A stretch of 64,000 nucleotides of DNA from an uncultured Candidatus Woesearchaeota archaeon (GTDB taxonomy: Archaea; Nanobdellota; Nanobdellia; UBA10117), in NCBI GenBank assembly GCA_903864915.1, contig CAIPHS010000011.1, forward strand, positions 14,634 through 78,633, in the 5' to 3' direction. The notes under the pieces were generated by a model, which saw nothing but the letters and a program-made list of their open reading frames with translations, made no database searches and was not told where the DNA came from. Made by a program: the position numbers and the translations under genes. Positions within the stretch are counted from its first letter, which is position 1; every line of letters starts with the position of its first letter. Positions 3,193 through 29,873 of this stretch are shown here, one piece after another.

Positions 3193-3252
3193 AATAGTCT
3201 TTACTGCAGAATTGTTACAGAACTTTAAATTGAGTTATTCCGTTCACTTATC

Positions 3253-6384: not shown

Positions 6385-6652
6385 ACAATTAGTTTTGCTA
6401 GAGGAACAAACAGTCCTTTCAAGAGAAAGGACGATGCAGCAATATATGACAACTGGGCTGGCATTCATCGGAGCAGGACTAATTGTTGTGCGGCTATTCC
6501 TAGGAGAACTGTACATGCTAATGGGCACAGTCCTGATTGTAATCGGATTCTGGCAGATTTATCAGGCGTATTTGAGATTCAAGCGGTACAGGTCTATGGC
6601 ACGAAAGCTCAGGCGCAAGGAAAAAAGATTGGGCTTGGATGTCGGTGAATAA
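6374..6652 (+). CDS. small membrane protein, DUF202/YidH-like
   Basis: LSRERTMQQYMTTGLAFIGAGLIVV followed by a second helix resembles the DUF202 pattern. Confidence 0.45.
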   Translation: MASRQLVLLEEQTVLSRERTMQQYMTTGLAFIGAGLIVVRLFLGELYMLMGTVLIVIGFWQIYQAYLRFKRYRSMARKLRRKEKRLGLDVGE

Positions 6653-6658
6653 CGAAAA

Positions 6659-7273
6659 TTAAGTGCTTAACGTATAAGAAAGTTCTGTTATCTTTAGTTG
6701 GGTGCCAGGTTCTACGTATGCTACAATATCCCAGCTGTTTCCGGTCCAGCTTACAGCGTCCAGGAAACATGTTTCCAAACACGTTCGACCGAAAGAGCCG
6801 CCACCGGTATTAAATCCAAGGTCACCAGGCCACGCAAGTTTATTACCTGTGCTTAATATCATCTCATCATCAAACTCTGCGTTTGCGGGATTTGCGGCTA
6901 CTGCAAGTCCTGTTATGAGGTTCGGCCTGTTTGGCTTGCCTACGTTGCCATAAACCATAAGTTTGTCACCCGCGCTGTTGCGTAAATAAACAGCGACATC
7001 ACCATCGCCGATTATCTCGCCAGATATTGCTAGATAATTCAGCGACGCTGATTGCCCGCTTTTTGTGTGCATCTGGATTAGTTTGCTTTCATCCAAAGTC
7101 ATATTGATCTGCTGTCTTTGTGCATCTGAAGAAACAAAACCAGTAATTGAAGGCTTTAACAAAACAAGGGGTAAAAACAAAAGGAGAACAATTACTGCGA
7201 CCAGTTCCAATTTTCGCAATCTCGTCGACCAAATGTTTGCCTTTACCATTTTATTAGAGGATATAAGCCTCAC
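6659..7273 (-). CDS. secreted/anchored protein, unknown function
   Basis: An N-terminal hydrophobic helix is followed by KPSITGFVSS, the same motif seen in the two giant proteins. GTG start lies 1 nt after the upstream stop; alternative ATG at 7249. Confidence 0.55.
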   Translation of the reverse strand: MRLISSNKMVKANIWSTRLRKLELVAVIVLLLFLPLVLLKPSITGFVSSDAQRQQINMTLDESKLIQMHTKSGQSASLNYLAISGEIIGDGDVAVYLRNSAGDKLMVYGNVGKPNRPNLITGLAVAANPANAEFDDEMILSTGNKLAWPGDLGFNTGGGSFGRTCLETCFLDAVSWTGNSWDIVAYVEPGTQLKITELSYTLST

Positions 7274-12500: not shown

Positions 12501-15500
12501 CTGATAATAACCGGCTCCAAGCGAAACATTCGTGTTCTTCTCACTCGTTACATTTGTTCCATTACGATAAATCTGGTCAGTGCCTGATGTTGAACTTGAG
12601 CTTGCATTAAGATTAGCACCATAAGGTATTGTTACATTATTTTGGATACCATTAAGAGTCAAATTAACAAAATCGTTCGCAGTACTGATCGTGAGATATC
12701 TTACTACTGTGCTTCCAGCAGTGTAATTAGTTCCGCCTGTTGTGTTGTACACATATACATAATTGCCTGCACCAAGAGTTGCAAGTTCAGTTGCCGGACT
12801 TCCGCTTGTAATAAAACTTCCATTTCTGTACAGATTAAATGTTAGGTCCTGGCTGACAGTTGAGATGCCTGTTGCATTGCTTGGGGTCCCGTAAGTTATT
12901 GTTGCATTGTTAAGAGCACTTTGTAAGTATAAGCTAAGCGAGCCAGATGGATCTGCTTTGTTTATCAACAATGTGTTTGTCTGCTGTGTACAATCAGAAT
13001 AATTTACACCACCTGTCCACTGGCAAGCATAATTATAAGATCCGGCTGTTGCGACCGCATCTGGTGAGCTCTTTGATGTGGAGTTCCTTGTGAAAGTCAT
13101 GCTTCCATCGCTTGAACCAGCTGAAACAGTACAGTTTGTGCTTGAAGATGTGCTATCGTAAGTCCTTGTCCAATTTTTGTCTGTAGCTAGCGTACACGTT
13201 CTTGTTGCCTGGTTTATTACAAAGTTGCTGGTGTTTGTGGCGCTGGTATAATTAGCATTACCTGTTGTGTTACATTCATATGCCCAGGTACTAACTCCAA
13301 GTGTTACAGCAGTCCCGTTTTCAGTCGCGGTTACATTAGTTCCATTTCTGTATAAAGCAACGGTGCCAGAGTTAGCTGTGCATGAACAAGTGGCTGTTAA
13401 GGCCGCACTATAATTCTGTGGTGTTGTCTTATCAAATGTTAAATTACACACTGATGTGCCCTTGTTCACAAACGCATAATAGGTGACGCCAGTGGCATTG
13501 TCGCTGTAGTTCGTATTTCCAGTTGCATTAACTTTGTAAGCATAAGTTCCGTTACCCAAAACAGATATGTTTACTTGTGGTGAAGCTCCGCTTGCCAGCA
13601 ACGTTGCATCCCTATACAAGAAAACAGTTCCAATTAGAGTTGTGCTGGTTGCGTTTATTGATTGTGGGTAAGTGTAAGTGCTATTTGCCTGCGTCCCGTT
13701 CAAGTACAGATTTACTGGATTGTCTGCCTTGCTTACTGTGAATGTTTGCTGCGCGCTTGCATTTGTGTTGCCAACAGAATCATTTGCGTAAGACTTCCAG
13801 TAGTATGTTCCGGCCCCAATTGTTGTACTGTAACTCCATACTCCGCTGGCATTTGTTCCTGACACAAGAGCCGCAGTATAGTTTTGAGCTGAGCCAGACC
13901 AGTTGCCGTCTATTTGTACTGTTGAGACATTGATATTATCTGCCCAAGTTATATTAAATACTGATGGTGTTGCGCTATATGTCAATGGAATACTTGATTG
14001 ATTATTGCTCCAGGTTGGTTTTGTATTGTCAATTGTAATTGTTCCGGCAGGATTGAATGAACTTGAATTGACAGTTCCGTCTCCAGCAGTGCAGTTGATA
14101 TCGACAACTTGCGATGCAAGAGCTGAGATATCCCAGTTGTATGCTCCTGTTGTGGATGAGTTAATGATATGCCATGTTCCGCTATCATTTGCACCTATGA
14201 AATACGTAATAGTATCTGTGTCCGCATCAGTTGAGCCTGTGCAGTTTATTGGGATTGTGCTGTTTGTGCCACCGTACATACCGGTTGTTGGTGTAAGTGT
14301 AGTTGGTGTTGTTGGTGCTGTGTTCTGAACAGTAGCGGTGCTTGAGTTTCTCCAACCAGTTGATTCGTTTGCGATACTATCACTTGCCATAGTAGCACAA
14401 ATTATTTGGTCGTTTTTATCTCCATTTCCAGCAATAGAAAGGTCCAAGGCGGAACTTACTTGTCCGCTGATTAAACCGTTGTTCTTGTACCATTGGTAAT
14501 ACCAGGCTGCTACGTCCCCATTAACATCAGTGAAGCTGCCATTTGTACAAGTAAGTACTGTATTTGTGGCAGGCGTAAGATTGCTTAGTGTAGGATTAGT
14601 TGAAGTTGGTGCTGTATTACTTGTTGTAAATGTCTGCGATGCGGATTTAGTCCATGTCCCTGTTGAATCATTTACCCAAACGTACCATCCAACAAGGCGA
14701 TTGTTTGTGGCATTGTTCAGTATGGTTATATTGCACCAGTTGGAGTTTCCGCTTAAAGAAGTAAATGATGTGTTAACAAAACTGCTACCTGTGTTGTTAT
14801 GTTCGATTTTACAACCGGATAGTCCATCAATGTCTGTAACATTTGCAGAGTAAAGCGCATTTACATTATGATTTGTGTCATTCATCGTAAAAGAAGCAAA
14901 TGTTGTGGCAGAGTCAGATATTGTTCTTGATGCTGAGTTAGATGTCCCGTTTACAAATGTGTCAGTTGGTATAACAGTACAAGTCCATGTCTGGCCTTTT
15001 GATAGGTTCCCGCTTGAAAGGTTGAATGATGTCTGTGAAACAAGCCCTGAAAGCACAGTGGTTGTTCCGTTAGTCCAGTTGAAGTAATATGAAATTGTAT
15101 CGCTGTCTGAATCAGTGCTTCCGGAAACCGAACAGTTCAAGTTGTCTGTTTTGTAAGCGGTTGCCGGAGCTATTGTAACAGTAGGTTGTGTAGGTGCATT
15201 GTTTGGATAAGTATTTGTGCCAGTAACTGAAGCAACGGCATTGCTCGTGTCATTGACTGTTATATTTATTGAAAGTGCTTTTACGGTTGTGGTATTAGTG
15301 CATCTAAATATAGTTTGATTGGTTGTTGAATTAATGCTTGTAGATGCTATTAACGTGCATTCTGTACTGTTGACTGTGACTGTACTTAGGTCTGTGTAGC
15401 TGTCCACATCAGTTACATTCACAGTTGCATTGAATGAATGTCCTGTTGTGTTGTTTGCGAAAGCAATTGCTGATATTGTTGGTACGCTGTTCTGGATTGT

Positions 15501-18500
15501 AATATTTGTTGAGTTCTTTGCAGTACCGTTCACAGTTCCATCATTTGGGATGACCTGGCAAGTCCAGTTATCTCCCTTTGTAAGGTTCCCTGATGTAAGA
15601 ATTGTAATATTTGTGTTTGTACCGTTTGTTATGCTAGTTTTTATTCCGCTAAAGTTTGCAGCGTTGTTCTTATACCATGTGAAATAAGCAGTAAGGCTTG
15701 TTTGTTCTGCGTCTGTGAGCGTTGCGTTACAATATAAGTTGTTAATTTTATAGGCAGTTGTCGGGTCAATTGTTGGAGTAGTCGTGTTTGGAGCTGTGTT
15801 TGGAACTGTTACATTTATTGTCGCGATATCTGTAACATTCCAGTTGCCCTGTGTGTCATTCGCCCAAATTCTCCAGCCAATTATGCCACTCACAGAACTA
15901 TTACTCCACGTGAAATTAGACCAGTTTCCAATGCTTGGGCCTATTTGCAACGGAGAGCCATAAACTCCGCTCTTGTTTGCCCACGCACCAGTCTCGTTTG
16001 TTGATAGAACAGCATAGCTTAGGTTAACATTGTCTGTCCAATAAGCTGAAAGTTTGACAGAGTCGGTATTGTTGATTGTTGAAGCGTTTTGGCTCTGGTT
16101 TGACCATCCTGGAGCCTGTATGTCCGTCCAGTTTACCTGCAGCAAAGGCCTTTGGTTTGCTGTCGCACTATTACTAGTTGTATATGTTTTTCTGGTGTTT
16201 TGTGTAGCCTCGTTACTATCTATTATTATCCATCCCTGGTTTTTGCTTTGGTTATCTGCAAAGATTTGTACATCATTAGTTACGTTAAACGAATAATACC
16301 CAGTTATGCTTACACCTGTGCTGGTTGAAAGAGTGGCGTTGTAATCGCCGCCAGCAGTTGTCCAGGCATTTCCTGTCGTATAATTGTTCCATGTTGCTTG
16401 AAGTTCGACCCATGTCCTGTTATCGTAAATTTTGTAGACATTGTGTGTTCTTGCGCCGGCGTCAGTAGCTGTAACATAAAATGTCAGATTGGCTTTGTCT
16501 ATCCTTACTCCAGAAGGAATACTTGAAAGATTGAATTTAATTAAGCTTCTATAAGCTCTGCCAGCGGCATTCCATTTACCAACTATCATGGTTGTGATGC
16601 TGCCATAATTGCTGTTGGCGCTTGCTTGATATATTTGCGTATCATTCGTCAGTGCAGTGCCGTTGAATTCGGCATATCCAGGATCGCCAGGTGTAATTGT
16701 TATGTTGTAAAGCGTTCCAGGCGTAAGTCCATATGCAATCGTATGCCACTGGCCTTCTTCACAAGTTTGCGCTGCGAAAGTATAATTGTCGCATTTTGTA
16801 AGTACACCTCCCGTAAGATTTACAGTAATGTTTGCTGTTTGGAAGCTGCCTAGCGGATTGACCGCAAAAATGTTTAATGCGCCATCCGATAGTCCTGGTT
16901 TATCAAACCCAGGCAATATAAAATTTGAATCAACGGTATAATTGTAGTACGTAATACTAATTGTTGGCGTATTTACTGGAGATATTTTTATAGTATAATT
17001 CCCAGCTATTAGGTCAAATGAGTATGTGGTGTTTGTCTGCAGGTATACTATTTGCCCCGTTGAATTTATTATCGTAAGAGTTGCATTTATCGCAGAACCG
17101 TTCGCACTTGGTATCGACTCATTCTGCTGCTTTGATACTGCTAAGGTTTGCGCTGTATTGTTTACCCATGTTGAGTTCACATTTCCAGCATTGTCTGCAG
17201 TCCTTATTTGTATCTGGTATGTTGTTGAATTACTTAGTCCGGTTGCATTGTAGTAGTTGTTTGAAGTATTTGTTTTGAATGTCCCGTTTAGCCATGCTTC
17301 TGCGTGATTAAAGTCAGCATCAGCAGGGTTTGTCCAGTTCCAGTATATCCAGTCTAATCCATACAACGGCGCAGACAATCCAGTAATTGTTGCAGGAGGT
17401 GTTGTGTCTAGTATTGTAACATTTGCATAATAAGTTACATTTGATGCAGTGTAATTCGTATCTCCAGGGAATGAGCCTGTTACGTTGTAATAACCTACCT
17501 GTGAAAGTGTCGTAATGTTAGTCAGGGGTGTAACTCCAGATTGCTGTGTCCATCCACTTATGTTTGTGTCCAGATAGACTGTCTTTCCGCTGGCATTTAT
17601 TGTAACAGTGAAGTTCGCGACATCACCCGTATTGTAACTTCTGTTTCCTTCAGTTCCGTTTAAGAAAAGTCTTGTCAGTGTTGCTGCCTTGTTCACTACA
17701 TAATTTGAGCTGTTAGTTGCACTAGTATAATTAGCATTGCCGGTGATATTGCACGTATAATTATATGTTCCAACCCCCAATGTTACATTTGAGTTTATTT
17801 CAGTTGTTACATTTGTTCCGTTCCTATAAAGCTGGGCAGTTCCTGCTGTGCATGAACATGAAACATTGAGTGATGTGCCATAGGTCTGTGGTGATGTTGG
17901 ATTAAAGCTAAGCGAACAGGCGCTAGTTGCCTGGTTCACAAAAGCATAGTAAGTGACACCAGTTAAGTTGTCACTATAGTTCGCATTGCCGGTGGCATTA
18001 ACTTTGTAAGCATAAGTCCCGTTGCCAAGATTTGACAAGTTAGTCTGTGGAGAAGCCCCACTAACCATCAAATTCCCATCGCGGTAAACATTAACAATGC
18101 CACCAGTTGAAGTACCAGTAGCATTAACAGTTGCTAGATAAATATACGTAACATTACTGTTAAGCGTACCATTTAAGTACAGGTTTACATTAATTGCTGT
18201 TTTATTTATGGCGAATGTCCAGTTTGCTGTGGAGTTCGGGTTCCCGTTAGTGTCATTAGCGTAAGACTTCCAGTAAAATGTTCCTGCAGGAAGTGTAGCA
18301 TTATAGCTCCAAATACCATTGGCGGTTGTTCCTGAGATAAGTGTTGCAGTGTAATTCTGCGGAGAACCTGACCAGTTCCCTTCTATCAAAACAGTTGAAA
18401 TATTTACGTTGTCTGCCCAAGTTATATTAAAGATTGAGATCTGCGAAGCATTATACTGTGTGGGGAAACTCGACTGATTAGTTGACCATGTTGGTGGATT

Positions 18501-20807
18501 TGTATCAGGCACAGTGTAATTTATTGTAACAGTATAATTTGCAGGAGCAAAACTGCACTGCGACCTGTTGTCACAGGCCCGGCAGTTCCACAAAATTGCA
18601 CCATTATTCAGATTCGTCCTGTTAAATGTAGTTTGATTTGATGTTCCGGAAGCATTCACTGTGCCATTAGCCAGGAAAGTTCCCGTATAATTCCAGTAGA
18701 AGGTGATATTAGAAAGTTTAATGTCATCAGTTGCATTACATGAGAATGTAACATTGTTTGACGTCGTTACATTTCCGTTTGCTGGGCTGACTAATGTTGC
18801 GTTAGGAGAAGTATCTGGAGTATAAGTAACATTAAAGAATAAAACATCCCAGAAGCCAACACCATTCGCACTTGGTGCGCCAACGCGTGTGATTTCTGCT
18901 TTTGCAAGAGCGCCTGTTGCGCTGGCACCAAAGAAGTTGCTGCAGCTCCAGCTTTCGTTGGCTGTTATGTTCTGACACGTCATGTTTGTTGGTTCTGATG
19001 TAGGTGGAATGGTGGTGTTAACTACAGTGTAGCTTGCTCCATTGTTAGCGTCCACTGATATATTGGCTACCGTTATGGCAGAACCGCTGTTATTGTACCA
19101 CCATTTGTAACATAAGGATACAGAGACTAGCGAACTGCAATCTGTAACGCTGGTGTTAGTAGAGTTTATCCTTATACCGCCATAATATGAGCTGGTAGTA
19201 TTTCTTCTCCAAGTGTGTAATTCGTAGCTGGTGTCGTCTGCGGTAAGAGATGATCCATTAGCCACCGTGCATGCGGCACCAAAACTATTCTGCGCTGCTG
19301 TGTCCTCTGCTGCACAATTTGTTATAGGTATTTGCGCGTACGCAGGGTCTTCTGGCGTTAGTACGAAACTATAATCCTGGCCCGGTGTTATACTTTGCAC
19401 AAATACCCAATCACCAGTGCAAATCTGATTTGCGAAATCCCAATCCTTACATTTATATAAGGAATCTCCGACAGCTGTACCTGTGACTGTTGCGCTAGTG
19501 AATTTAAACTGAGTTGGGTCGATTGCATAAATATCTACAAAATCGCCTGATGCTGACGGATTATCAATTTTAATGAAATCGGTAATATTTTGTTGGATAT
19601 CCAGATTTTCAAAGTCTATTTCTTTAATAGGATGATTTTGCAATTTGACATTAATGTTATATTCGCCCCTTGGAATGTCAAGACCTGGCTCGCCGGCAGC
19701 TTCTTCAATCGGTGCTTGTGTTTCGCTGGAGGCTAATGGCATTGGCTGTTCAATCTGATTTTCTGCAGGTGTTGTCTGAGCAGGAGTTTGCTCTGTCAGT
19801 GCGGAAGGTTGTTTTGCTGCTAGCTCTTTAAGTGTAACCGCTTCATCGCCTTTTTCGCTCTTTCCAATTGCTTCGACAGCATTTGTTTTGGTATTTGCAA
19901 ATTCGATGGTTGCTGGCACAGCATCTCCATTGGAATCTACTATTGTTGTTCCAAAAAATACAGTCTCATTTGTCTGGTTAACAGCTTCTGACTTGTTTGA
20001 GAGGGAATACGAAACCTCATCAATCTGCAATTCACTATGGTCAACTTCTATGATTAATTCGTAATTGCTCGCATCCAAGCCGTCTGGAAGCAGGCAGGTA
20101 TCTTCACAGACGTCTGTAAAGCTTATTGTTCCTGTTTGTTTCTCTGTGGTTACATTTGTGGCGTTAACCAAGGTCTCGTTTGTTGCATTTTCAGTAGGTG
20201 TGGTTAAATTCTCTTCGAGAACAGTAATGTTTTCAGCAGGCACTGCATTCTCGGATTGATTTTCAGTTGCACTTTCAGGGCTTAGCTGTTCCATTGGAGT
20301 TCCTTCGCCATTATTATCTGCTGAAATCGTGTCCGCTGCAACTGCGATGCTTTTTAGAGCACTCGAAGCATCAGAAGGTGATTGTGATTCCAGCTGTGCA
20401 GGTTCGCCCCCGCTGTCAGAAGAAGAGGCCGAACTTCCAGTAACATCTGTGAATAAACCAGTGGCCAAATCAGTAGCCTTATTCCTTAAAAGGTTTACAG
20501 AGTCAAAAACAATGAACGTCCCACTTGCCGTTTTAAGGAGAACTTTTGCCTGGCCTTCGCCTGAAAAATTGCCTGAGATTTTTACCGATTTCAAATTATA
20601 TGGCTGGCTTTCAGCGATATTTAAGACATAAGAGCTGTTTGAAGTATAAACCTCATTAACTGGGGTTGAAAAATTCTCTGAGGAAACAAAAAACCTTCCG
20701 GTGATTGCTGGGCCGGTGATTAAAAGGTTTGTTAAGATTATAAGATTTAAAGATATGATTAGTATGAACATGATTTGCGACATTGATAGCTTTCGCTTAC
20801 TCTTCAA
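9564..20807 (-). CDS. giant (3747 aa) repeat-rich, sequon-rich cell-surface protein
   Basis: Uninterrupted 11.2-kb ORF with a TTG start preceded by AAGGTGGTG. It has an N-terminal signal anchor and a C-terminal TM helix with a KR tail. In between are tens of ~85-aa Ig-like modules, two FN3-like modules and a DNRLRE-like module. Confidence 0.9.
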   Translation of the reverse strand: MKSKRKLSMSQIMFILIISLNLIILTNLLITGPAITGRFFVSSENFSTPVNEVYTSNSSYVLNIAESQPYNLKSVKISGNFSGEGQAKVLLKTASGTFIVFDSVNLLRNKATDLATGLFTDVTGSSASSSDSGGEPAQLESQSPSDASSALKSIAVAADTISADNNGEGTPMEQLSPESATENQSENAVPAENITVLEENLTTPTENATNETLVNATNVTTEKQTGTISFTDVCEDTCLLPDGLDASNYELIIEVDHSELQIDEVSYSLSNKSEAVNQTNETVFFGTTIVDSNGDAVPATIEFANTKTNAVEAIGKSEKGDEAVTLKELAAKQPSALTEQTPAQTTPAENQIEQPMPLASSETQAPIEEAAGEPGLDIPRGEYNINVKLQNHPIKEIDFENLDIQQNITDFIKIDNPSASGDFVDIYAIDPTQFKFTSATVTGTAVGDSLYKCKDWDFANQICTGDWVFVQSITPGQDYSFVLTPEDPAYAQIPITNCAAEDTAAQNSFGAACTVANGSSLTADDTSYELHTWRRNTTSSYYGGIRINSTNTSVTDCSSLVSVSLCYKWWYNNSGSAITVANISVDANNGASYTVVNTTIPPTSEPTNMTCQNITANESWSCSNFFGASATGALAKAEITRVGAPSANGVGFWDVLFFNVTYTPDTSPNATLVSPANGNVTTSNNVTFSCNATDDIKLSNITFYWNYTGTFLANGTVNASGTSNQTTFNRTNLNNGAILWNCRACDNRSQCSFAPANYTVTINYTVPDTNPPTWSTNQSSFPTQYNASQISIFNITWADNVNISTVLIEGNWSGSPQNYTATLISGTTANGIWSYNATLPAGTFYWKSYANDTNGNPNSTANWTFAINKTAINVNLYLNGTLNSNVTYIYLATVNATGTSTGGIVNVYRDGNLMVSGASPQTNLSNLGNGTYAYKVNATGNANYSDNLTGVTYYAFVNQATSACSLSFNPTSPQTYGTSLNVSCSCTAGTAQLYRNGTNVTTEINSNVTLGVGTYNYTCNITGNANYTSATNSSNYVVNKAATLTRLFLNGTEGNRSYNTGDVANFTVTINASGKTVYLDTNISGWTQQSGVTPLTNITTLSQVGYYNVTGSFPGDTNYTASNVTYYANVTILDTTPPATITGLSAPLYGLDWIYWNWTNPADADFNHAEAWLNGTFKTNTSNNYYNATGLSNSTTYQIQIRTADNAGNVNSTWVNNTAQTLAVSKQQNESIPSANGSAINATLTIINSTGQIVYLQTNTTYSFDLIAGNYTIKISPVNTPTISITYYNYTVDSNFILPGFDKPGLSDGALNIFAVNPLGSFQTANITVNLTGGVLTKCDNYTFAAQTCEEGQWHTIAYGLTPGTLYNITITPGDPGYAEFNGTALTNDTQIYQASANSNYGSITTMIVGKWNAAGRAYRSLIKFNLSSIPSGVRIDKANLTFYVTATDAGARTHNVYKIYDNRTWVELQATWNNYTTGNAWTTAGGDYNATLSTSTGVSITGYYSFNVTNDVQIFADNQSKNQGWIIIDSNEATQNTRKTYTTSNSATANQRPLLQVNWTDIQAPGWSNQSQNASTINNTDSVKLSAYWTDNVNLSYAVLSTNETGAWANKSGVYGSPLQIGPSIGNWSNFTWSNSSVSGIIGWRIWANDTQGNWNVTDIATINVTVPNTAPNTTTPTIDPTTAYKINNLYCNATLTDAEQTSLTAYFTWYKNNAANFSGIKTSITNGTNTNITILTSGNLTKGDNWTCQVIPNDGTVNGTAKNSTNITIQNSVPTISAIAFANNTTGHSFNATVNVTDVDSYTDLSTVTVNSTECTLIASTSINSTTNQTIFRCTNTTTVKALSINITVNDTSNAVASVTGTNTYPNNAPTQPTVTIAPATAYKTDNLNCSVSGSTDSDSDTISYYFNWTNGTTTVLSGLVSQTSFNLSSGNLSKGQTWTCTVIPTDTFVNGTSNSASRTISDSATTFASFTMNDTNHNVNALYSANVTDIDGLSGCKIEHNNTGSSFVNTSFTSLSGNSNWCNITILNNATNNRLVGWYVWVNDSTGTWTKSASQTFTTSNTAPTSTNPTLSNLTPATNTVLTCTNGSFTDVNGDVAAWYYQWYKNNGLISGQVSSALDLSIAGNGDKNDQIICATMASDSIANESTGWRNSSTATVQNTAPTTPTTLTPTTGMYGGTNSTIPINCTGSTDADTDTITYFIGANDSGTWHIINSSTTGAYNWDISALASQVVDINCTAGDGTVNSSSFNPAGTITIDNTKPTWSNNQSSIPLTYSATPSVFNITWADNINVSTVQIDGNWSGSAQNYTAALVSGTNASGVWSYSTTIGAGTYYWKSYANDSVGNTNASAQQTFTVSKADNPVNLYLNGTQANSTYTYPQSINATSTTLIGTVFLYRDATLLASGASPQVNISVLGNGTYAYKVNATGNTNYSDNATGVTYYAFVNKGTSVCNLTFDKTTPQNYSAALTATCSCTANSGTVALYRNGTNVTATENGTAVTLGVSTWAYECNTTGNANYTSATNTSNFVINQATRTCTLATDKNWTRTYDSTSSSTNCTVSAGSSDGSMTFTRNSTSKSSPDAVATAGSYNYACQWTGGVNYSDCTQQTNTLLINKADPSGSLSLYLQSALNNATITYGTPSNATGISTVSQDLTFNLYRNGSFITSGSPATELATLGAGNYVYVYNTTGGTNYTAGSTVVRYLTISTANDFVNLTLNGIQNNVTIPYGANLNASSSSTSGTDQIYRNGTNVTSEKNTNVSLGAGYYQYKANTTGNTNYTANGTGIIYYVTVSQVTSTCSLSFNPTSPQTYGTAINASCSCTNPEASATLYRDGANVTVTENNINTVLAAQAHNYTCNISASQNYTSASNSSNYTITRANPSGNLGLALNGIESDTAITYGTQSNATGWSDLVNNQDLTFNLYGNGILANSGDPASDVQTLAAGNYTYVYNTTGGVNYTAGSSPARLLIVDRAISVLTLSASPGWVVFNGTQTNVSCGTNTPQVTPSFYRNGTSASNPDVQTLSPGNYNYICNNSATQNYTEASTSNTLAVTLKNVSNCYLNFNPTSPQTYPTSVNASCSCTNPESSAKLYRDDADVTATENNVFASLAAGNYSYVCNVTETGNWSTASNSSIYELDPVTTVLSLTASPSWTNTYPTETTVNCSANNAEVTPQLYVNGTFVGIPYTITHAAGTYDYVCNNTASQNYTSESASNTLTINKTSTSTQLYLDGMGANETVTYPSQTNATAVTDVGSVTLYREGSSVSNQDIATLAAGTYNYTAVNLGDENYTGSFETWFLTVNQNTSSCNLAFNPTSPQTYGTAINASCSCTNPEAATELYRDGVDVTSSENNMYTTLAANTYNYVCNTSASQNYTSASTGFSYVINPVTGVIYLYLNGSRANFTTSNNTYVNISAVLVSGTGDMQVYDNGTQIYSGASPSQNVTLFDALGVHNITAEFLGNQNYTAAYETWWINITPPVISNVIAQSITDNSTQILWDTNVFANSTIDYDTTLALGSNITSASFVLSHSLALASLSANTTYFFNVTSCDQYNNCVTSGPYNFTTTSTTLTPSGFESILKHRKPTTNVSAVANETLPGQAGYTGTYYIGDFNFTSVYDYNSSVNESHVFTYDGVNHTITPLQIADNFVDLQIESKVSRLKLGVNESGDVDVTDDGVADVRITLNGIEAGSAYLTVRILEKPLASVAFAPSYMFYVQTLLTFLVVLYLIWAIWRKKKREAEEKEAKRKTR
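13209..14021 (-). repeat. intragenic segmental duplication, copy B (aa ~2263-2533 of the giant protein)
   Basis: Collinear with aa ~771-1040: PTWSxNQSS...NITWADN...YYWKSYAND...NLYLNGT...GNGTYAYKVNATGN.NYSDN.TGVTYYAFVN...CSCT...LYRNGTNVT. Confidence 0.8.
17688..18497 (-). repeat. intragenic segmental duplication, copy A (aa ~771-1040 of the giant protein)
   Basis: Partner of 13209..14021. Shared nucleotide strings include tctgcccaagttatattaaa. Confidence 0.8.
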
Positions 20808-20984: not shown

Positions 20985-21797
20985 TTAGCGGCTCTTTCTT
21001 TTAGCTTTTCTTTTTTTGTTGCCTTTCTCGCTCTTGTAATACTGCCAAACTATGACTCCAACGAGTCCCAATAAAAGCCACCAGTACCAGCACAGGCTGA
21101 GAATTTCATAGCACGCATAGCTAACTTGTGGGCAATTCCCACCCGCTGTTACTTTTCCCGGCAATCCATATATTATAAAATCAGAGAATGATAAAAATTG
21201 AGCAGTGTAGTGGTAATAAACAATATCGGAACCCGTATTATTAACGTTTAAAACCTGCATATTACCATCATTAAATTTTTTAACGCCTATTGCCGATGGG
21301 CTTACGTTATGAATGGCTAGCCAGACTTTTGAAACCCTGAAGTTCAAATTGGCAGCGTTATACTGGTTAACAGTTATGCCATCGATGCGCACAGTTGCGC
21401 AATCGTAAAAAATCTCGCCTTCCTGCAGGCTATGATTCTGGCATCCTTCAGTGGTTATGTTTATAGTTCCTGAGTTGATATCCTGTGCAGCAACAAGAGT
21501 TAACCGGTCAAAAGGACTTCCAAACACGTCAATAGGAAAAGTTAGATTATCCCCCGCATGGACCGCATTCTGAATCGTATGCACGCCTTGAACGTAAATA
21601 TCTATGTAAGGTACGGTGGCATTCATTGCGCCGGCACCTGCATTTCCGCCTGCTTGCGGTGAAGGAGACGGCGGCGGTGTTGGACTACCTGGAACTGTGA
21701 GTGTAGCCCCAATGCCACCACTAGAATCGGCATGAACCGAATTAATAAAAACAAAAAGGGAAAGCACGATTAATGCCACCAAAAACTTCTTATCCAT
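20985..21797 (-). CDS. secreted PGF-pre-PGF-like domain protein with C-terminal TM anchor and KR tail
   Basis: Signal peptide (VHA/DS), Pro-rich linker and NLNFRVSKVWLAIHNV...VKKFNDG...YYHYTAQFLSFSDFIIYG. The ATG at 21797 overlaps the upstream TGA (TGATG); the ORF track extends to TTG at 21803. Confidence 0.7.
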   Translation of the reverse strand: MDKKFLVALIVLSLFVFINSVHADSSGGIGATLTVPGSPTPPPSPSPQAGGNAGAGAMNATVPYIDIYVQGVHTIQNAVHAGDNLTFPIDVFGSPFDRLTLVAAQDINSGTINITTEGCQNHSLQEGEIFYDCATVRIDGITVNQYNAANLNFRVSKVWLAIHNVSPSAIGVKKFNDGNMQVLNVNNTGSDIVYYHYTAQFLSFSDFIIYGLPGKVTAGGNCPQVSYACYEILSLCWYWWLLLGLVGVIVWQYYKSEKGNKKRKAKRKSR

Positions 21798-22300
21798 CAG
21801 CAATTCATCGTCACAGTTATTGTTTGGTTGTAAGTTGCGGGGTTTTGCGATGCCGGAACTGCCACACCAAAGTATAGTTGCAATGATGCCAATTTATTCA
21901 AGTTTCCACCAGCTATCACAACATCACTTGCAGTCAAAGCTGTTCCTGCGCCATACGTAAATCCGGATGTGCTGTATTGTGTCTGACCTACGACAAAGTT
22001 ATTAACACCGCCATCACTCCATTGCGTCCCTCTTGTGGTTGTGTTTGTTGCCTGCGCATTTCCATTGTTCGTTACATTAACAACTTGATTTGTAGCACCT
22101 GTATTTGTTCCGGCAGCTACTGAGCCAAAGCCTATTGAGCTTGTGTTTAGCGACAACATGCATTCCGCAGGAACCGTAACTTGTCCTGTTACATTGTTTG
22201 AGCTTGTATATGCATAAGCCATATCCACTGTGGCTAATAGCCCGACAATCGCCAGCGCTACAAAACCAACTATACCTATTAGCATTTGCCAGTTTTTCAT
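21797..22300 (-). CDS. small secreted pilin-like beta-sandwich protein (SCPU/Csu-like by eye)
   Basis: Signal peptide with an AYA cleavage-type site. The mature protein is a paralog of the C-terminal module of the 1142-aa protein and ends YNQTITVTMNC. GGAGGT lies upstream of the ATG. Confidence 0.7.
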   Translation of the reverse strand: MKNWQMLIGIVGFVALAIVGLLATVDMAYAYTSSNNVTGQVTVPAECMLSLNTSSIGFGSVAAGTNTGATNQVVNVTNNGNAQATNTTTRGTQWSDGGVNNFVVGQTQYSTSGFTYGAGTALTASDVVIAGGNLNKLASLQLYFGVAVPASQNPATYNQTITVTMNC

Positions 22301-22301
22301 A

Positions 22302-22793
22302 TTACCTCCGTCTCCTTATAATGCTCTCATACACTATATAGAGCAATATAAATATTATGGTTAGCGCAATTAGTAGCAAGCAAACTTCGGTTTTCAAAGA
22401 CAGCGAAACCTTATACACAAAATTCTTTTCCATCTCAGTCTGCAACACCACAACGCCACTAGCACCCCTTTCGTGCCCAAGCGCACGGACCTTACCGCTA
22501 AAACTACCTAAATGTTCCGCAGTTGCGGTTACATCGATTTGCTGCTGACTATGTGGCACTAACGTAAAATTTGCAGGCGAAACTGAAACTGTATTACCCA
22601 CATAATACGTGTTAACATCTATAGTAGTCTCGCCAGGGTTTACAACCCAATAGGTCAATGTTTTGTTTTCGCCTAACTTCAGTGTTCCAAAGTCCAATAC
22701 GCCCGCAGTCTGGCCAAATTCTGCACTCGCTATGCTCAGTGTTGCAGACAGCAACATACCTAACAACACTAGCACTTTAATCTTATTTTTCAT
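22302..22793 (-). CDS. membrane-anchored single Ig-fold protein (PapD/ASH-like by eye)
   Basis: Signal peptide. The segment LDFGTLKLGENKTLTYWVVNPGETTIDV...VSPANFTLVPHSQQQIDVTA follows the ASH/MSP/PapD-like pattern. C-terminal TM helix plus RRRR. Confidence 0.65.
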   Translation of the reverse strand: MKNKIKVLVLLGMLLSATLSIASAEFGQTAGVLDFGTLKLGENKTLTYWVVNPGETTIDVNTYYVGNTVSVSPANFTLVPHSQQQIDVTATAEHLGSFSGKVRALGHERGASGVVVLQTEMEKNFVYKVSLSLKTEVCLLLIALTIIFILLYIVYESIIRRRR

Positions 22794-22801
22794 TGTTTCC
22801 C

Positions 22802-25800
22802 CTAACAGTTCATTGTAACTGTTATTGTTTGATTGTAAACCGCGGAATTTTGTGCATTCGGAACTGCAAGGCCCCAGTATGTATCCAAACTTCCACCAGA
22901 TGAAATATTGCCATTTGCCAAGGCAGCATCTGATGCTGTCAAAGCGCTGGTCAATGACGTATAAGTTACATTTGTATCACCATACTTTGTGTAATTAACA
23001 ATGAAGTTATTACTGCCGCTATCTGTCCAATTGGTACCGCGTACAGTCGTATTTGTTACTGTCGCAGTTCCAGTGTTATTGATCCTTAACAACAAACTGT
23101 TCGCCCCCGTATCGGTGCCTGGCGCAACTGTACCGAAGTTCAGCAAGCTTGTTGACAGAGAGGCTATACACGTGGTGTTTACATTAACTGTTAATGTCCG
23201 GTTTGAAGATGCAAATGCGCAATTTGCGGAAGAATCACAGGCTTTGCAGTTCCATGTATAAGTACCAGTTGTAAGGTTGAGTGTGAAGTTTGCATGGGTT
23301 GACGTGCCCGAAACAACTGCTGTCTGGTTAAGGCTGAATGACTGATTGCTTGAATTAGTTATGTACATGCTGATGTTCTGCACATTATTGTTATCTGTTG
23401 CGTTGCACTGGAACGCAACTGTTGCTGGAGATATTGTGCTGTAACCGTTCAGCGGGCTGCTAAGTGCGACGCTGGGCAGAGTTGTGTCTATGATGTTTGC
23501 GTAAACATATTGTATGCTGTTGCTCACGCCGTTTATGTCAGTGGCATTTATTGTTATCTTATACGTGTCAACATAATTCGTGTTTGAGTAACCTGTTTCC
23601 CAAAGTCCGGATGTTGCATTGTAGATTAGTGAAATTATTTCATATCCAATACTATATGATATGTTTGCGGTGACTGTGCTCACTCCAGCTGCGTCTGTTA
23701 CATTCGCCTTGATAGGTATTATGCTTCCAAGCACATAATTGGTTCCATTTACGGGGCTTGTGATGTTTACAGTCGGAGGCGTGATACTATATGCGAAATT
23801 GTATGTTGTGTTAACATAACTGCCATCAACATTTCGTATTGTGCCGCCTGTGCTGTTCATGCAGGCTGCGTAAATTCTATATGCGCCATCTCCAAAGCTG
23901 AGGTTGTTTGTACTGTAGTTCATTGGGTTCCAGATGGTATCGAGCTTTAATATCTGGGATGGCTGCAGTTGCCTCGGCGTTGTTTCGTTTACAACAACGT
24001 CATCATCTAACCATGTGGTGCCGTTCCAGTACTGTGTTTTCATTAAGAGATAGCATGATGCATTTGTTGTTCCATTGTTTAACAACTTGCTCTGGTTTTC
24101 GGGAGCTGTGGTGACTGTCTTGAAAAAGTTAAATTCGGCCAATCTCCATTCAAATCCCCGGTTGTTGGCGATTGCCCTGAACTGTATGCGTGCCTGACTT
24201 ACATTTGTCTGGTTGAAACTTGCTATTGTCCAGGCACTGTCAGTAAAAGAACTGTTGTAGATATTTATCCAGCTGCTGCCATTGTATATGTCAACTGTTG
24301 CAAGGTCAACATCAACTGACTTTGCATTAAACCTTATCTTGTCTGAAAGCACAGGAGTTCTATTCAAATACAGATAGAAACTCATTAGTCCATCCGGATC
24401 ATTTGCTTCATGATAGCTGCGGGTTTCTGTAACAAGTTCATCATCAAATGCAGATATTTCATTATCCCATTGGTTTGAAGGATCATCGTAACCTGTTGCG
24501 GATACCCAGCCCACCGCAGCAGGGCCTGTGGTGAATGACTGGTCCGAACCATTTGTCTGTCCAGCGCTGTTGTTAATCTGCGCAATAAAGTGATATGTCT
24601 TTCCGTTTTGCAGTCCGTTAATTCTGCTAGACATAGAAAAGACTGTGTATTCTGGAGACTGCCAGTCAGTTGCGTTTGTATATGAAGTATTTTCTCCGTA
24701 AATGAACCTTATCTGGCATTTGTCTCCACCATCACTAAGAGTGGTAGCATGAAGAATTGCAGTATCATCTTCTACTGCGGTTGCTTCTCTCGTCGTGACA
24801 ACTGGCAGGTTTACCTGCGTGGATATGTTATAGAACTGGAACTCGTACAGCCAGTATATCCAGCCGCCAACAGTATAGTTAAACCTGAACCTTCCGCCCG
24901 TAACATTTCCTATTGTGAAATTTGCTTCATACCAATTAAGATTGTCAATAGGGCCTTGGTAAACATCAGTCCAGTTGCCATCCCTAACTACATCTATGTC
25001 AACTGCATTTACCTGCGTATAGTAATCTGCCCAAACTCTGACACGGTCAGATGTTATCTGGCTAACATTAAATGTTATGAATGAACCCCAACCTGCACCA
25101 GGGTTGGAATTATCGCTTGCATAGGTATGCGTATCGCCATCCATCGAGTTAGGCAAGTTTGTCCAAAGCCCGGTTGGGTCAGAGTTATTTGATGGTAATA
25201 TCCATAAACCAGGCGGGTCGCCAACGCTTATGTATGAATAATACTTTTTGCCCAGGCTGTTTGTGGCTGTAAGCAGAACTACGTAATGCCCTGGCAGCTT
25301 GTTTCCAGAGGACCATATTGCCTGCCATGTGCCGTCAGTTGAACTTCCATTAACAAGACTCAAAGACACTTCTTCGCTGCCTGCCGAGGTCGGTATCTGT
25401 GCAGTTACGTTTGATACTGCACGACTGCCCTTAACATGTGCAGATATAAGCAGTTGAGAAGATTCAATTCCCGTCAATCCAAATCTGCCAGAACCTCCAC
25501 CTCCGCTTGGACCAACATAAGTACTTGTAATCTGAGGAGCATCAGCATCGGATTCATCAGGGTCGGTTATGTTGATGCCTTGATTTGCAGTATAGCCTTC
25601 TTTTAGCGTATGTACTTGTATGGAAAGGTTCTGGTAGCTTACAGTTACATTCCTTGTTTCTGTAGAGTTGCTGTTTCCAATCGTGTCTATTGCGGTCGCA
25701 TTGAATAAGTAAAGTCCATTGGACAAATCAGTAAAGTTCGCAAAATTAGGTGACGTTAAAGTTGTAGTTGAATTAATTAATGATGTAGAGTTATACAAAT

Positions 25801-26230
25801 TGATAGTTATGTTAGCCAAACTAGCGTCTAAAGCTGTTGCATTAATCAGCACGAAATTTCTATTTATAGAAGAACCTGATGTTTCTGTCGGAGTTACAAA
25901 TTGTACCTGTGGGTCTGGAGCGGCTATAATTATGTTTCTTGTTTCAGTTGTATTTTCAAGTGAAACATTTTCAGCAGGCGCTGCATTCCCTGATTGATTT
26001 CCAGTTGCGTTTTCCTGGCCCGGTTGTTCTGTTGGAGTTCCTGTGCCGGGATTAGGAATTGAAAAGTTAGTTGAAAAATTTCCGGAGGAAACAAAAAACC
26101 TGCCCGTGATTGCTGGGCTGATGATTAGAAGATTTGTCAGGATTATGAGATTTAAAGATATGATTAGTATGAACATGATTTGCGATATTGATAGCTTACG
26201 CTTACTCTTCAGATATGACTTTCTCGCCAA
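22802..26230 (-). CDS. 1142-aa multidomain adhesin-like surface protein with C-terminal pilin-like module
   Basis: TTG start preceded by GGGAGGTGGTGG, and the same leader as the giant protein. Contains Ig-like modules, an FN3-like module, two discoidin-like modules, and a last ~125 aa homologous to the 167-aa protein. Confidence 0.85.
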   Translation of the reverse strand: MARKSYLKSKRKLSISQIMFILIISLNLIILTNLLIISPAITGRFFVSSGNFSTNFSIPNPGTGTPTEQPGQENATGNQSGNAAPAENVSLENTTETRNIIIAAPDPQVQFVTPTETSGSSINRNFVLINATALDASLANITINLYNSTSLINSTTTLTSPNFANFTDLSNGLYLFNATAIDTIGNSNSTETRNVTVSYQNLSIQVHTLKEGYTANQGINITDPDESDADAPQITSTYVGPSGGGGSGRFGLTGIESSQLLISAHVKGSRAVSNVTAQIPTSAGSEEVSLSLVNGSSTDGTWQAIWSSGNKLPGHYVVLLTATNSLGKKYYSYISVGDPPGLWILPSNNSDPTGLWTNLPNSMDGDTHTYASDNSNPGAGWGSFITFNVSQITSDRVRVWADYYTQVNAVDIDVVRDGNWTDVYQGPIDNLNWYEANFTIGNVTGGRFRFNYTVGGWIYWLYEFQFYNISTQVNLPVVTTREATAVEDDTAILHATTLSDGGDKCQIRFIYGENTSYTNATDWQSPEYTVFSMSSRINGLQNGKTYHFIAQINNSAGQTNGSDQSFTTGPAAVGWVSATGYDDPSNQWDNEISAFDDELVTETRSYHEANDPDGLMSFYLYLNRTPVLSDKIRFNAKSVDVDLATVDIYNGSSWINIYNSSFTDSAWTIASFNQTNVSQARIQFRAIANNRGFEWRLAEFNFFKTVTTAPENQSKLLNNGTTNASCYLLMKTQYWNGTTWLDDDVVVNETTPRQLQPSQILKLDTIWNPMNYSTNNLSFGDGAYRIYAACMNSTGGTIRNVDGSYVNTTYNFAYSITPPTVNITSPVNGTNYVLGSIIPIKANVTDAAGVSTVTANISYSIGYEIISLIYNATSGLWETGYSNTNYVDTYKITINATDINGVSNSIQYVYANIIDTTLPSVALSSPLNGYSTISPATVAFQCNATDNNNVQNISMYITNSSNQSFSLNQTAVVSGTSTHANFTLNLTTGTYTWNCKACDSSANCAFASSNRTLTVNVNTTCIASLSTSLLNFGTVAPGTDTGANSLLLRINNTGTATVTNTTVRGTNWTDSGSNNFIVNYTKYGDTNVTYTSLTSALTASDAALANGNISSGGSLDTYWGLAVPNAQNSAVYNQTITVTMNC
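26071..26217 (-). repeat. leader cassette copy B
   Basis: Partner of 20666..20812, offset 5405 nt. Confidence 0.9.
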
Positions 26231-29126: not shown

Positions 29127-29873
29127 TTAATAAATCTCGTAAACTACATTGACATTTGCGGTTACCGTAACATCCTGCGGCAAGATTGTTGCCGATTCCT
29201 GGACTGCAGCAACTCCCGCATCATTCTTCATAGCGTAAGCGTAAGGAAGGGCATAATACTGGTTTTCCGATACAGAAACTACTTTACCTAAAGTAACCCC
29301 TGAACCACTAGCCATTGCTTCTGCTTTTGTCCTAGCGCTTGCGGTTGCCTCTTTTATTGCCTGGGTTTTATATTCATTCTCTTTGGACGATGATAAATAG
29401 AATTCCACACTGTTGATTTGATTTGCCCCATTGTTAACTGCAACATCCACAATAGTTCCTACTTTTGTAAAGTCGCTCGTTTTAACCTTAAGATTTTGGG
29501 ATGCAGTCCAACCAGTCGTGCATCCTGGAGACATAGAAGGATCATATGGGCAGGATTGTTGGTATAAACTAACACTTTCAGTTTCTATATCTGAGGTACT
29601 AATTCCCATTTGTTTTAATGCAGCTATAACATTATTTGTAACATTATTTGTATAAGCCTGTGCTTCCTGAGCTGTGGGCTTTACAATAGATACTCCAACA
29701 TAAACTCTTGCCAAATCAGGTGCAACAGTTATTTCAGAATTTCCCTGAGCCTGGATAGTACTTTTGTTTACGAGGTTTTGATTAAAATAAGCATAAGTAC
29801 CAATTAATAATAAAATAGCTATGATTATTGTTCCGGATATAATCCATATTTTTTTGTCTTGTTGGTGAACCAC
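29127..29873 (-). CDS. SIMPL/DUF541-family secreted protein
   Basis: N-terminal anchor, then ITVAPDLARVYVGV...AQEAQ...VTNNVIAALKQMGIS..DIET, typical of SIMPL-domain proteins. GTG start. Confidence 0.7.
   Translation of the reverse strand: MVHQQDKKIWIISGTIIIAILLLIGTYAYFNQNLVNKSTIQAQGNSEITVAPDLARVYVGVSIVKPTAQEAQAYTNNVTNNVIAALKQMGISTSDIETESVSLYQQSCPYDPSMSPGCTTGWTASQNLKVKTSDFTKVGTIVDVAVNNGANQINSVEFYLSSSKENEYKTQAIKEATASARTKAEAMASGSGVTLGKVVSVSENQYYALPYAYAMKNDAGVAAVQESATILPQDVTVTANVNVVYEIY

Follow-up and report, generated by a model that had tools for sequence, protein, structure and literature searches.

A cysteine-bracketed module, free and fused to an adhesin in a Woesearchaeota operon, as a candidate building block of donor-strand-linked fibres

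The 64,000-nt stretch of an uncultured Candidatus Woesearchaeota archaeon analysed here (contig CAIPHS010000011.1, positions 14,634 to 78,633, hereafter the window) encodes two copies of one protein module on its minus strand, one as a free protein of 167 amino acids (aa) and the other fused to the C-terminal end of a large adhesin. According to structural models the module is a secreted beta-sandwich whose predicted fold is closest to that of the chaperone-usher pilins, and a probability of about 0.5 is given to the reading that it is the building block of a fibre in which tip, shaft and anchor are linked by donor strands, with neither usher nor outer membrane. Little is known of how DPANN archaea and Patescibacteria attach to their hosts, and giant surface proteins without annotation abound in their genomes.

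Two copies of one module

The two proteins, the two module copies and the segments in front of them are as follows.

21797..22300, minus strand: free protein, 167 aa, from the list of open reading frames (ORFs)
22802..26230, minus strand: adhesin, 1142 aa from a TTG start (1124 aa in public gene calls), from the ORF list
21800..22162, minus strand: free module copy, aa 47-167, Cys47 to terminal Cys167, delimited by BLASTP and the predicted beta-sandwich core
22805..23170, minus strand: fused module copy, adhesin aa 1021-1142, Cys1021 to terminal Cys1142, delimited by BLASTP and the family profile
23171..23212, minus strand: adhesin aa 1007-1020, ASSNRTLTVNVNTT, aligning with the N-terminal extension of the free protein
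22211..22300, minus strand: Sec-type signal peptide ending A-Y-A, free protein aa 1-30, cleavage placed by eye
22163..22210, minus strand: N-terminal extension, free protein aa 31-46, YTSSNNVTGQVTVPAE, proposed donor strand with the motif V-T-A/G-x-V-T-V-P

The first-pass annotation of this DNA had described a module occurring both free and fused and had aligned residues 42-167 of the small protein with residues 1017-1142 of the adhesin; the pairwise BLASTP comparison bears this out over a slightly longer span, residues 33-167 against residues 1007-1142 (the last 136 residues of the adhesin), with 71 of 136 positions identical (52%), 68% positives, one gap and a significant E of 4e-33. As had also been noted, both ORFs terminate in YNQTITVTMNC-stop, and each module is bracketed by one cysteine at its start and one as the very last residue (Cys47 and Cys167 in the free protein, Cys1021 and Cys1142 in the adhesin). 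These two are the only cysteines of the free protein, the adhesin having seven more upstream, and the terminal cysteines are invariant in nine of nine close homologues as well as in four orthologous adhesins. The family profile recognises the fused copy with a domain E of 5.9e-34, and its search of the window found two copies of the module and no third.

The identity of the C-terminal 11-mer is not mirrored in the DNA. The two copies are 63% identical at the DNA level with a longest exact match of 11 nt, and since synonymous sites of the pair are saturated at this identity, synonymous codon differences were counted in place of the ratio of nonsynonymous to synonymous substitution rates (dN/dS). 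Such differences were observed at six of the 11 codons of the 11-mer, which, together with the short longest match, argues that its identity has been kept by selection at the protein level; a recent duplication, gene conversion or an assembly artefact as its source in the window is ruled out by the 11-nt longest match. The duplication of the module is old, because the free copy of the window has 56-67% identity to the free copies of orthologous loci and only 55% to the fused copy beside it.

Different histories were observed for the module pairs of other genomes. The fused and free copies share exact DNA identity in their central part over 196 nt in L001 (6060-9512 versus 10001-10489), 125 nt in L013 (3-2255 versus 2746-3228) and 215 nt in L014 (3081-5966 versus 6455-6943), so that in three of the four other genomes the two copies of a pair agree exactly over a central stretch of DNA, corresponding to about aa 54-124 of the free protein, a pattern which the window pair does not show. 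It indicates that the core has been homogenised by recurrent partial gene conversion in these three genomes. The regions of the converted pairs that remain type-specific are the first strand and the last 40 residues, the fused copies reading ...GLGIP...SY.QTIT.SMNC and the free copies ...GVGVP...TY.QTITVTMNC, which means that the parts proposed to line the strand-acceptor site keep their type identity despite conversion of the core.

Module family, cysteine pair and predicted fold

The size of the family, the N-terminal strand and a conserved four-gene operon are additions to the first-pass annotation. The family size was taken from an exhaustive profile search of 1.84 billion representatives, which returned 975 clusters (defined at 50% identity) at E <= 1e-3 and 314 at E <= 1e-10; a word-indexed homologue search with a 90-sequence profile returned 14 proteins only. 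The members belong to DPANN archaea and some Patescibacteria, and the sources of the proteins nearest to the free protein (53-63% identity) are metagenomes and metagenome-assembled genomes labelled Nanobdellati or Nanoarchaeota (DPANN archaea). Family counts given here refer to 159 examined sequences, and column and cysteine statistics to 189 aligned modules. The module ends at most 6 aa from the C-terminus in 159/159 proteins, behind cargoes that vary widely (250-1800 aa) where there is one, with cysteine as the last residue in 136/159 and within the last six residues in 149/159. Module-only proteins (210 aa or less) account for 95/159, 83 of those 95 having exactly two cysteines, while 25/159 are two-module tandem proteins, which stem from Micrarchaeota-type genomes, and 14/159 are of 600 aa or more. 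The family is marked at the C-terminus by the signature A-x-V-x-V-P-x-x-C ... Y-x-Q-T-I-T-x-T-x-x-C. In the literature that was searched no description of this module family in DPANN archaea or in Patescibacteria (candidate phyla radiation, CPR) was found.

The two cysteines are present or absent together. Both occur in 166/189 modules, plus five with a misaligned terminal cysteine, and both are absent from 10-11 of the 189; the start cysteine alone was observed in two real cases, each with a compensating extra cysteine, and the end cysteine alone in no real case, the four listed being N-terminally truncated fragments (Fisher p = 4e-10 for co-occurrence). In a mean-field direct coupling analysis (DCA; effective depth 186) the C47-C167 coupling ranks fourth and stands out alone. 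The first-pass annotation had offered an intra-module staple and an inter-subunit disulfide as the roles of these residues, and the former is favoured because, in each module considered by itself, both cysteines come and go as a pair. The tandem proteins P0029, P0032, P0034 and P0160 have lost both cysteines in module 1 and kept both in module 2, where a head-to-tail bond would leave both remaining cysteines unpaired and an intra-module bond none, which therefore again favours the staple; a disulfide from the first strand to the C-terminal residue of the same module is thus considered probable. The converse arrangement, subunits joined head to tail from the terminal cysteine of one to the start cysteine of the next, has a counterpart in the disulfide-cross-linked Ena spore appendages of Bacillus. 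It would suit a cysteine that ends the chain and is thereby exposed and available for reaction, it would also require the two cysteines to co-occur, and a classical immunoglobulin (Ig) topology, if present, would place the chain termini far apart. Nevertheless, besides the partnerless cysteines of the four tandem proteins, the start cysteine Cys1021 of the adhesin would have no partner, and the Patescibacteria relatives function without either cysteine, which makes such cross-linking very improbable.

Residues 47-167 of the free protein are modelled as an all-beta sandwich with a predicted local distance difference test score (pLDDT) above 90, in an AlphaFold2 monomer model based on the free protein, nine homologues and the fused copy of the window. 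Foldseek matches of this monomer in the PDB are weak (E 1e-3 to 1e-1, template modelling (TM) scores 0.37-0.52), and the list is dominated by subunits of donor-strand fibres, namely Caf1, CsuA/B, PapA, FimA/FimG, CfaB, CS20, TasA and Pyrodictium cannulae, with E of 3e-3 to 3e-2 for Caf1, CsuA/B, PapA and FimA, and E of 7e-3 (8aur_A) and 6e-2 (9h8b) for the TasA/cannulae group. A second model, of the natural two-module protein P0160 with 22 homologues (pLDDT 83.8), gave much stronger matches, which were to the two-domain tip adhesins of chaperone-usher pili: CfaE (E 1.7e-9), CsuE (E 5.5e-8, TM 0.40/0.42) and FimH (E 8.6e-7), with LpfD and CupB6 matching too, and 3f83, the in-cis donor-strand-complemented CfaE-CfaB fusion, with a TMq of 0.49. 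The term pilin-like, used in the first-pass annotation, is accordingly supported in part, by the predicted fold and the free-plus-fused architecture, and lacks backing at the sequence level, where nothing in Pfam, NCBIfam or the PDB sequences matches the module significantly. One homologue bears the label 'spore coat protein U-like' given by the Joint Genome Institute (JGI), with no significant score behind it.

The structural matches also include carbohydrate-related sandwiches, namely the N-terminal domain of GH123 (E 1e-3) and the galactose-binding module of a sialidase (E 1e-5). They could speak for a lectin-like beta-sandwich that binds glycans or the host, the 167-aa protein being a soluble lectin and the fused copy the binding head of the adhesin, with a disulfide that merely stabilises the fold; NPCBM_assoc is weakly recognised in 5/10 members (Pfam), and DPANN cells must recognise host surfaces (Nanobdella preprint). 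A binding head would be expected to be variable, yet conservation is highest in the core and in the C-terminal strand, and the free and fused copies have been homogenised by gene conversion in three genomes. As a lectin would moreover leave unexplained the N-terminal strand, the similar motif in a membrane-anchored protein of the same operon and the tandem and multi-paralogue arrangements, this explanation is judged quite improbable.

In the mature free protein 16 residues precede the first cysteine, and across the 189 modules this extension is a conserved amphipathic strand motif, V-T-A-T-V-T-V-P, with V/I in 79% of the first column, A as the commonest residue of the next, V-type residues in 75% and 89% of the following ones, T/S/N between them, and then Pro. 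The A-x-A ending of the signal peptide recurs in all nine close free homologues, and a type IV pilin or archaellin is ruled out by this Sec-type signal, found in place of a class III signal peptide and followed by a polar T/S/N-rich beta-strand motif in 9/9 of them; the mature protein is all-beta in the model, unlike the hydrophobic N-terminal alpha-helix of a type IV pilin. The extension is not a strand in the monomer model, and the first extension of P0160 is coil (pLDDT 46-70). Between the two modules of P0160, on the other hand, the motif AVFSANVQQ (residues 188-196) is modelled as a nine-residue strand with a pLDDT of 85-94, and only a short turn separates it from the long strand (residues 166-178) with which module 1 ends. 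Similarly, the segment 'I.FG.V' is a strand in module 1 of P0160, the module that has a strand following it, and neither in module 2 nor in the monomer. On the simplest reading of these models, the strand would dock in the module ahead of it, with 'I.FG.V' on one side and the C-terminal strand of that module on the other, a strand geometry that is the same as in engineered self-complemented pilins.

Operon partners and the proposed fibre

The minus strand of the window carries a head-to-tail series of five large ORFs, encoding proteins of 1142, 163, 167, 272 and 3747 aa. Among the first four genes the gaps are 8 nt and 1 nt, followed by an overlapping stop and start, which points to a co-translated operon. 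The order adhesin, Ig protein with transmembrane helix (about 165 aa), free module protein (about 162 aa) and anchored protein (270-430 aa) was observed in five genomes of Nanoarchaeota type (the window, L001/L004, L005, L013 and L014), and each adhesin of L001, L005, L013 and L014 has the module at its C-terminus, with (S/T)MNC-stop as the final residues. The partners of the module proteins and the orthologues of the anchor candidate are listed below.

22302..22793, minus strand: 163-aa Ig protein, with signal peptide, one Ig domain of ASH/MSP type (PapD-like superfamily) and C-terminal transmembrane helix
20985..21803, minus strand: 272-aa anchor candidate (270 aa in public gene calls, its ATG overlapping the stop of the free gene)
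21690..21716, minus strand: anchor motif GIGATLTVP, aa 30-38, resembling the extension of the free subunit
L001 10532-11782: orthologue of the anchor candidate
L005 10506-11729: orthologue of the anchor candidate
L013 3255-4544: orthologue of the anchor candidate
L014 6968-8251: orthologue of the anchor candidate

The adhesin consists of an N-terminal basic and hydrophobic segment, a glycosylation-rich Ig-type region with a Big_7 domain at aa 819-893, and the C-terminal module. It contains 65 N-x-S/T sequons (5.7 per 100 aa), and the operon proteins in general have 3.0-6.9 sequons per 100 aa, against 0-0.5 in the cytoplasmic genes of the window, a density expected of archaeal extracellular glycoproteins; the module protein is probably N-glycosylated, to judge from these sequons. 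A conserved motif was also observed past the hydrophobic segment of the adhesins, reading ITGRFFVSS in the window, LEWFVTSS in L001 and IEGFVTSE in L005.

The 272-aa protein is built of a signal peptide, an N-terminal strand, a Pro/Thr-rich linker, a PGF_pre_PGF domain (TIGR04213, 43.2 bits at a cutoff of 28, NCBIfam), a transmembrane helix and a Lys/Arg tail. No PGF-CTERM model is listed among its matches, and its orthologues have a cytoplasmic tail of roughly 100 aa after the helix, unlike a cleaved sorting signal. Its N-terminal strand lies in the peptide GIGATLTVPGSP, and G32, A33, L35, T36 and P38 do not vary among five orthologues whose overall identity is only 29-35%; their mature N-terminus reads [IV]GA[ST]LT[VI]P, for which the counterpart in the free subunit is I-T-A-x-V-T-V-P. 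With a position-specific scoring matrix (PSSM) of the extension the anchor motif ranks 5th of 26,697 positions in the window, a match that is no more than suggestive. The window protein lacks the N-terminal domain (roughly 100 aa) and the Lys/Glu-rich cytoplasmic tail (roughly 100 aa) of all four orthologues and has a Pro/Thr/Ser-rich linker in place of the former, with the GATLTVP strand retained.

The 163-aa protein is recognised by PF22544 (HYDIN_VesB_CFA65-like_Ig; 3.1e-07, 31 bits at a cutoff of 25.5) and PF15780 (ASH; 7.1e-07, 29.8 bits at a cutoff of 27) in Pfam, and the profile of its family matches HYDIN (1e-33), CFAP65 (4e-10) and MOSPD2 (0.05) among PDB sequences. The pilus chaperone FaeE reaches E 1.2 with the same profile, the likeness to pilus chaperones thus being at the superfamily level only, and a role as a membrane-tethered chaperone or as an assembly or base factor is speculation. 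A gene of this type adjoins the module genes in 7/7 DPANN loci, those of Micrarchaeota type included. At one of the latter, L015 (5016-9133), five module-only paralogous genes stand in a row (179-220 aa, all ending in ENSC or ENQC), an arrangement also seen in pilin operons; they surround a 307-aa gene for an Ig protein with transmembrane helix and lie downstream of genes for a 755-aa membrane-anchored protein and a ParA/MinD-like ATPase.

From these parts a fibre can be proposed as follows. The adhesin would be exported first and form the tip, its C-terminal module solely accepting a strand, as does the pilin domain of FimH, CfaE and CsuE, and the 167-aa protein would be the shaft or linker subunit. 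After cleavage of the signal peptide the 16-residue N-terminal strand of a free subunit would dock beside the C-terminal strand of the preceding module, whether that of the adhesin or of another free subunit, and the module of the docked subunit would in turn take the next strand, and in each module a disulfide between its own two cysteines would hold the first strand against the C-terminal one. The N-terminal strand of the 272-aa protein (GATLTVP) would fill the last module and end the chain, its C-terminal helix and basic tail fixing the fibre in the membrane. The membrane-tethered 163-aa protein might help in assembly or capping, which is the weakest step. Such a fibre would need no usher, outer membrane, sortase or ATPase. 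The glycosylated adhesin would be held out at a distance from the cell, where it could plausibly serve to attach to a host.

Several observations weigh against a donor-strand fibre. The structural resemblance comes with TM-scores of just 0.3-0.5, and generic beta-sandwiches (the GH123 N-domain, the carbohydrate-binding module of sialidase, ASH) score alike; the sequence link to fimbrial families is lacking, SCPU of Pfam reaching E 0.082 in 1/10 members and the PDB 'Fimbrial protein' 7lhi_F an E of 0.55 with the 90-sequence profile, below significance. The docking itself is read from patterns of secondary structure and model confidence, and the coupling analysis of the 189 modules gave no coherent contact pattern between extension and module. 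In the adhesin, what aligns with the extension is simply the strand that closes the Ig-type domain ahead of the module. Strands rich in T/V are common, and in the window an unrelated protein at 29127..29873 outscores the anchor motif with the extension PSSM, so that strands of this type are unspecific. A classical Ig topology would put the beginning of strand one and the end of the final strand at opposite ends of the domain, which leaves the geometry of the disulfide unproven. The N-terminal hydrophobic segment of the adhesin might be an uncleaved anchor in place of a signal peptide, a distinction that matters for the tip model. Finally, the Patescibacteria relatives of the module lack both cysteines and occur in different gene contexts.

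These relatives (33-38% identity) carry the module at the C-terminus of proteins of 310-1707 aa, and were observed at L009 (4268-11315), L011 (4622-9121 and 13536-15410) and L010. A further explanation is that the module is a non-polymerising C-terminal domain for docking or surface retention, which would hold its cargo non-covalently on the 163-aa partner, the 272-aa partner or both, the free 167-aa protein being a cargo-less competitor or a regulator of docking. The WxL proteins of Firmicutes with their membrane-anchored partners, or cohesin-dockerin pairs, would be its analogues. The strictly C-terminal position of the module on very different cargoes fits retention, as do the membrane-anchored Ig proteins that are always encoded beside module genes and the Patescibacteria loci, where large and small module-bearing proteins stand beside a protein with signal peptide, Ig domain and transmembrane helix, a layout that presumably resembles the CscA-D/WxL cluster. 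Homology of this Patescibacteria neighbour to the DPANN Ig protein is unsupported (hhalign probability 2%). Retention is nevertheless considered unlikely: the module has no WxL, DUF916 or dockerin-type match, five module-only paralogues at one locus and natural two-module proteins are hard to explain by it, and it has no need of a conserved amphipathic strand that forms only behind a module. The tandem proteins, the paralogue runs, the conserved extension and the cysteine pattern thus argue in turn against retention, lectin and cross-linked subunits, and leave the donor-strand fibre as the preferred reading.

Known systems and further loci

Chaperone-usher pili (type 1 FimH/FimG/FimF/FimA/FimI, class 5 CfaE/CfaB and archaic CsuE/CsuA/B) are the best structural matches of both models, and the likeness extends to organisation: the C-terminal domain of the tip adhesin is a paralogue of the shaft subunit, the shaft subunit has a short amphipathic N-terminal extension, the operon encodes an Ig-fold protein of the PapD-like superfamily, a terminating component donates a strand (as proposed here), and a conserved disulfide involves the first strand (as predicted here). 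There are also differences. Sequence homology is not detectable, the hosts are DPANN archaea and Patescibacteria in place of Gram-negative bacteria, and there is no outer membrane. The Ig protein has one domain and is membrane-anchored, unlike the soluble two-domain chaperone, the predicted disulfide runs from the residue that opens the module to the one that ends the protein, and the proposed terminator is a transmembrane protein. No usher and no PapD_N/C match was found among the operon proteins, in which the sole Ig protein has a single ASH/MSP-type domain and a membrane helix.

WxL clusters (CscA-D of Firmicutes) contain large and small secreted proteins that share a C-terminal domain, together with a C-terminally anchored protein with signal peptide and Ig-type domain. 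WxL domains bind peptidoglycan, which DPANN archaea lack, and are not known to have a cysteine pair. Membership of the module in this group was rejected, as neither the DPANN and Patescibacteria proteins of the family nor those encoded beside them gave a WxL, DUF916 or DUF3324 match in Pfam at E <= 0.1-10.

TasA fibres, archaeal bundling pili (AbpA) and Pyrodictium cannulae (CanA) are chaperone-free donor-strand polymers of cells without outer membrane and give weak structural matches; unlike the module proteins they are jelly-roll subunits of matrix fibres or tubes and have no dedicated tip adhesin. A conserved terminal cysteine pair is not known to be a feature of TasA, AbpA or CanA. There is no sequence relation, and membership of the module in the TasA family was rejected. 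The threads of Sulfolobus acidocaldarius consist of the subunit Saci_0406 with Saci_0405 as putative cap; the subunit is a glycosylated beta-sandwich that depends on Sec and signal peptidase I and has an N-terminal donor strand, the subunits are joined by isopeptide bonds, the neighbouring gene encodes a strand donor without acceptor site and, in the case of the cap, without signal peptide, no assembly machine is known, and no fusion to a tip adhesin is described (bioRxiv 10.1101/2022.04.26.489512). By inspection the module protein likewise has a signal peptide and an N-terminal strand, and unlike the threads it has a conserved cysteine pair and a proposed anchor that is secreted and transmembrane. 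Thread membership (Saci_0406 type) was rejected, there being no PDB sequence match and no thread among the top 50 structural matches. In fold and logic the closest system is thus the chaperone-usher pilus and in biology the archaeal thread, and none of threads, TasA, bundling pili and cannulae is detectably related or known to have a fused tip adhesin or a terminal cysteine pair.

A wider and more doubtful possibility is that an undescribed family of adhesive fibres, which assemble by themselves through donor strands and tether the cell to its host, is common to DPANN archaea and Patescibacteria. Such fibres would have a modular tip adhesin, a disulfide-clamped shaft, a transmembrane terminator or anchor and a membrane-tethered PapD-superfamily Ig chaperone, and would represent a single-membrane, usher-free counterpart or relative of chaperone-usher pili. 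If the module is a strand-linked connector, any protein ending in it would be a fibre tip or subunit, which would make hundreds of proteins readable and supply candidate attachment structures for cryo-electron tomography. Donor-strand polymerisation that needs neither usher nor outer membrane would also gain a further example, and the PapD-superfamily partner would bear on the origin of chaperone-usher pili. Even read conservatively, the module marks out a large protein family that spans two domains of life, lacks annotation and can be recognised by a simple sequence signature. As its members occur in ultra-small episymbionts among archaea and bacteria alike, one may ask whether it was transferred between the domains.

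Possible anchors were also observed in Micrarchaeota-type systems, where large C-terminally anchored proteins at L012 (6936-8957) and L015 (1803-4070) open, after the signal peptide, with an extension-like motif (SANITAVAYAVC in L012 and GQVIITSSVSVNC in L015) followed by a cysteine; by this likeness they may be strand-donating anchors. Rfam and tRNA scans of the window were empty. Two further proteins of the window are listed below.

9564..20807, minus strand: 3747-aa giant surface protein, 177 nt downstream of the anchor gene
29127..29873, minus strand: 248-aa protein with an N-terminal membrane helix, ending in QDVTVTANVNVVYEIY

The association of the giant protein with the module system is uncertain. 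It is repetitive, with 257 N-x-S/T sequons, a C-terminal transmembrane helix and one Disaggregatase-related repeat (Pfam), over the first 48 aligned residues its N-terminus is 90% identical to that of the adhesin, and its aa 666-763 form an Ig-type domain 43% identical to adhesin aa 917-1016, the domain that precedes the adhesin module; it has no module itself and no counterpart at the orthologous loci. The 248-aa protein, the one whose terminal strand outscores the anchor motif, looks by eye like a protein of SIMPL/BP26 type.

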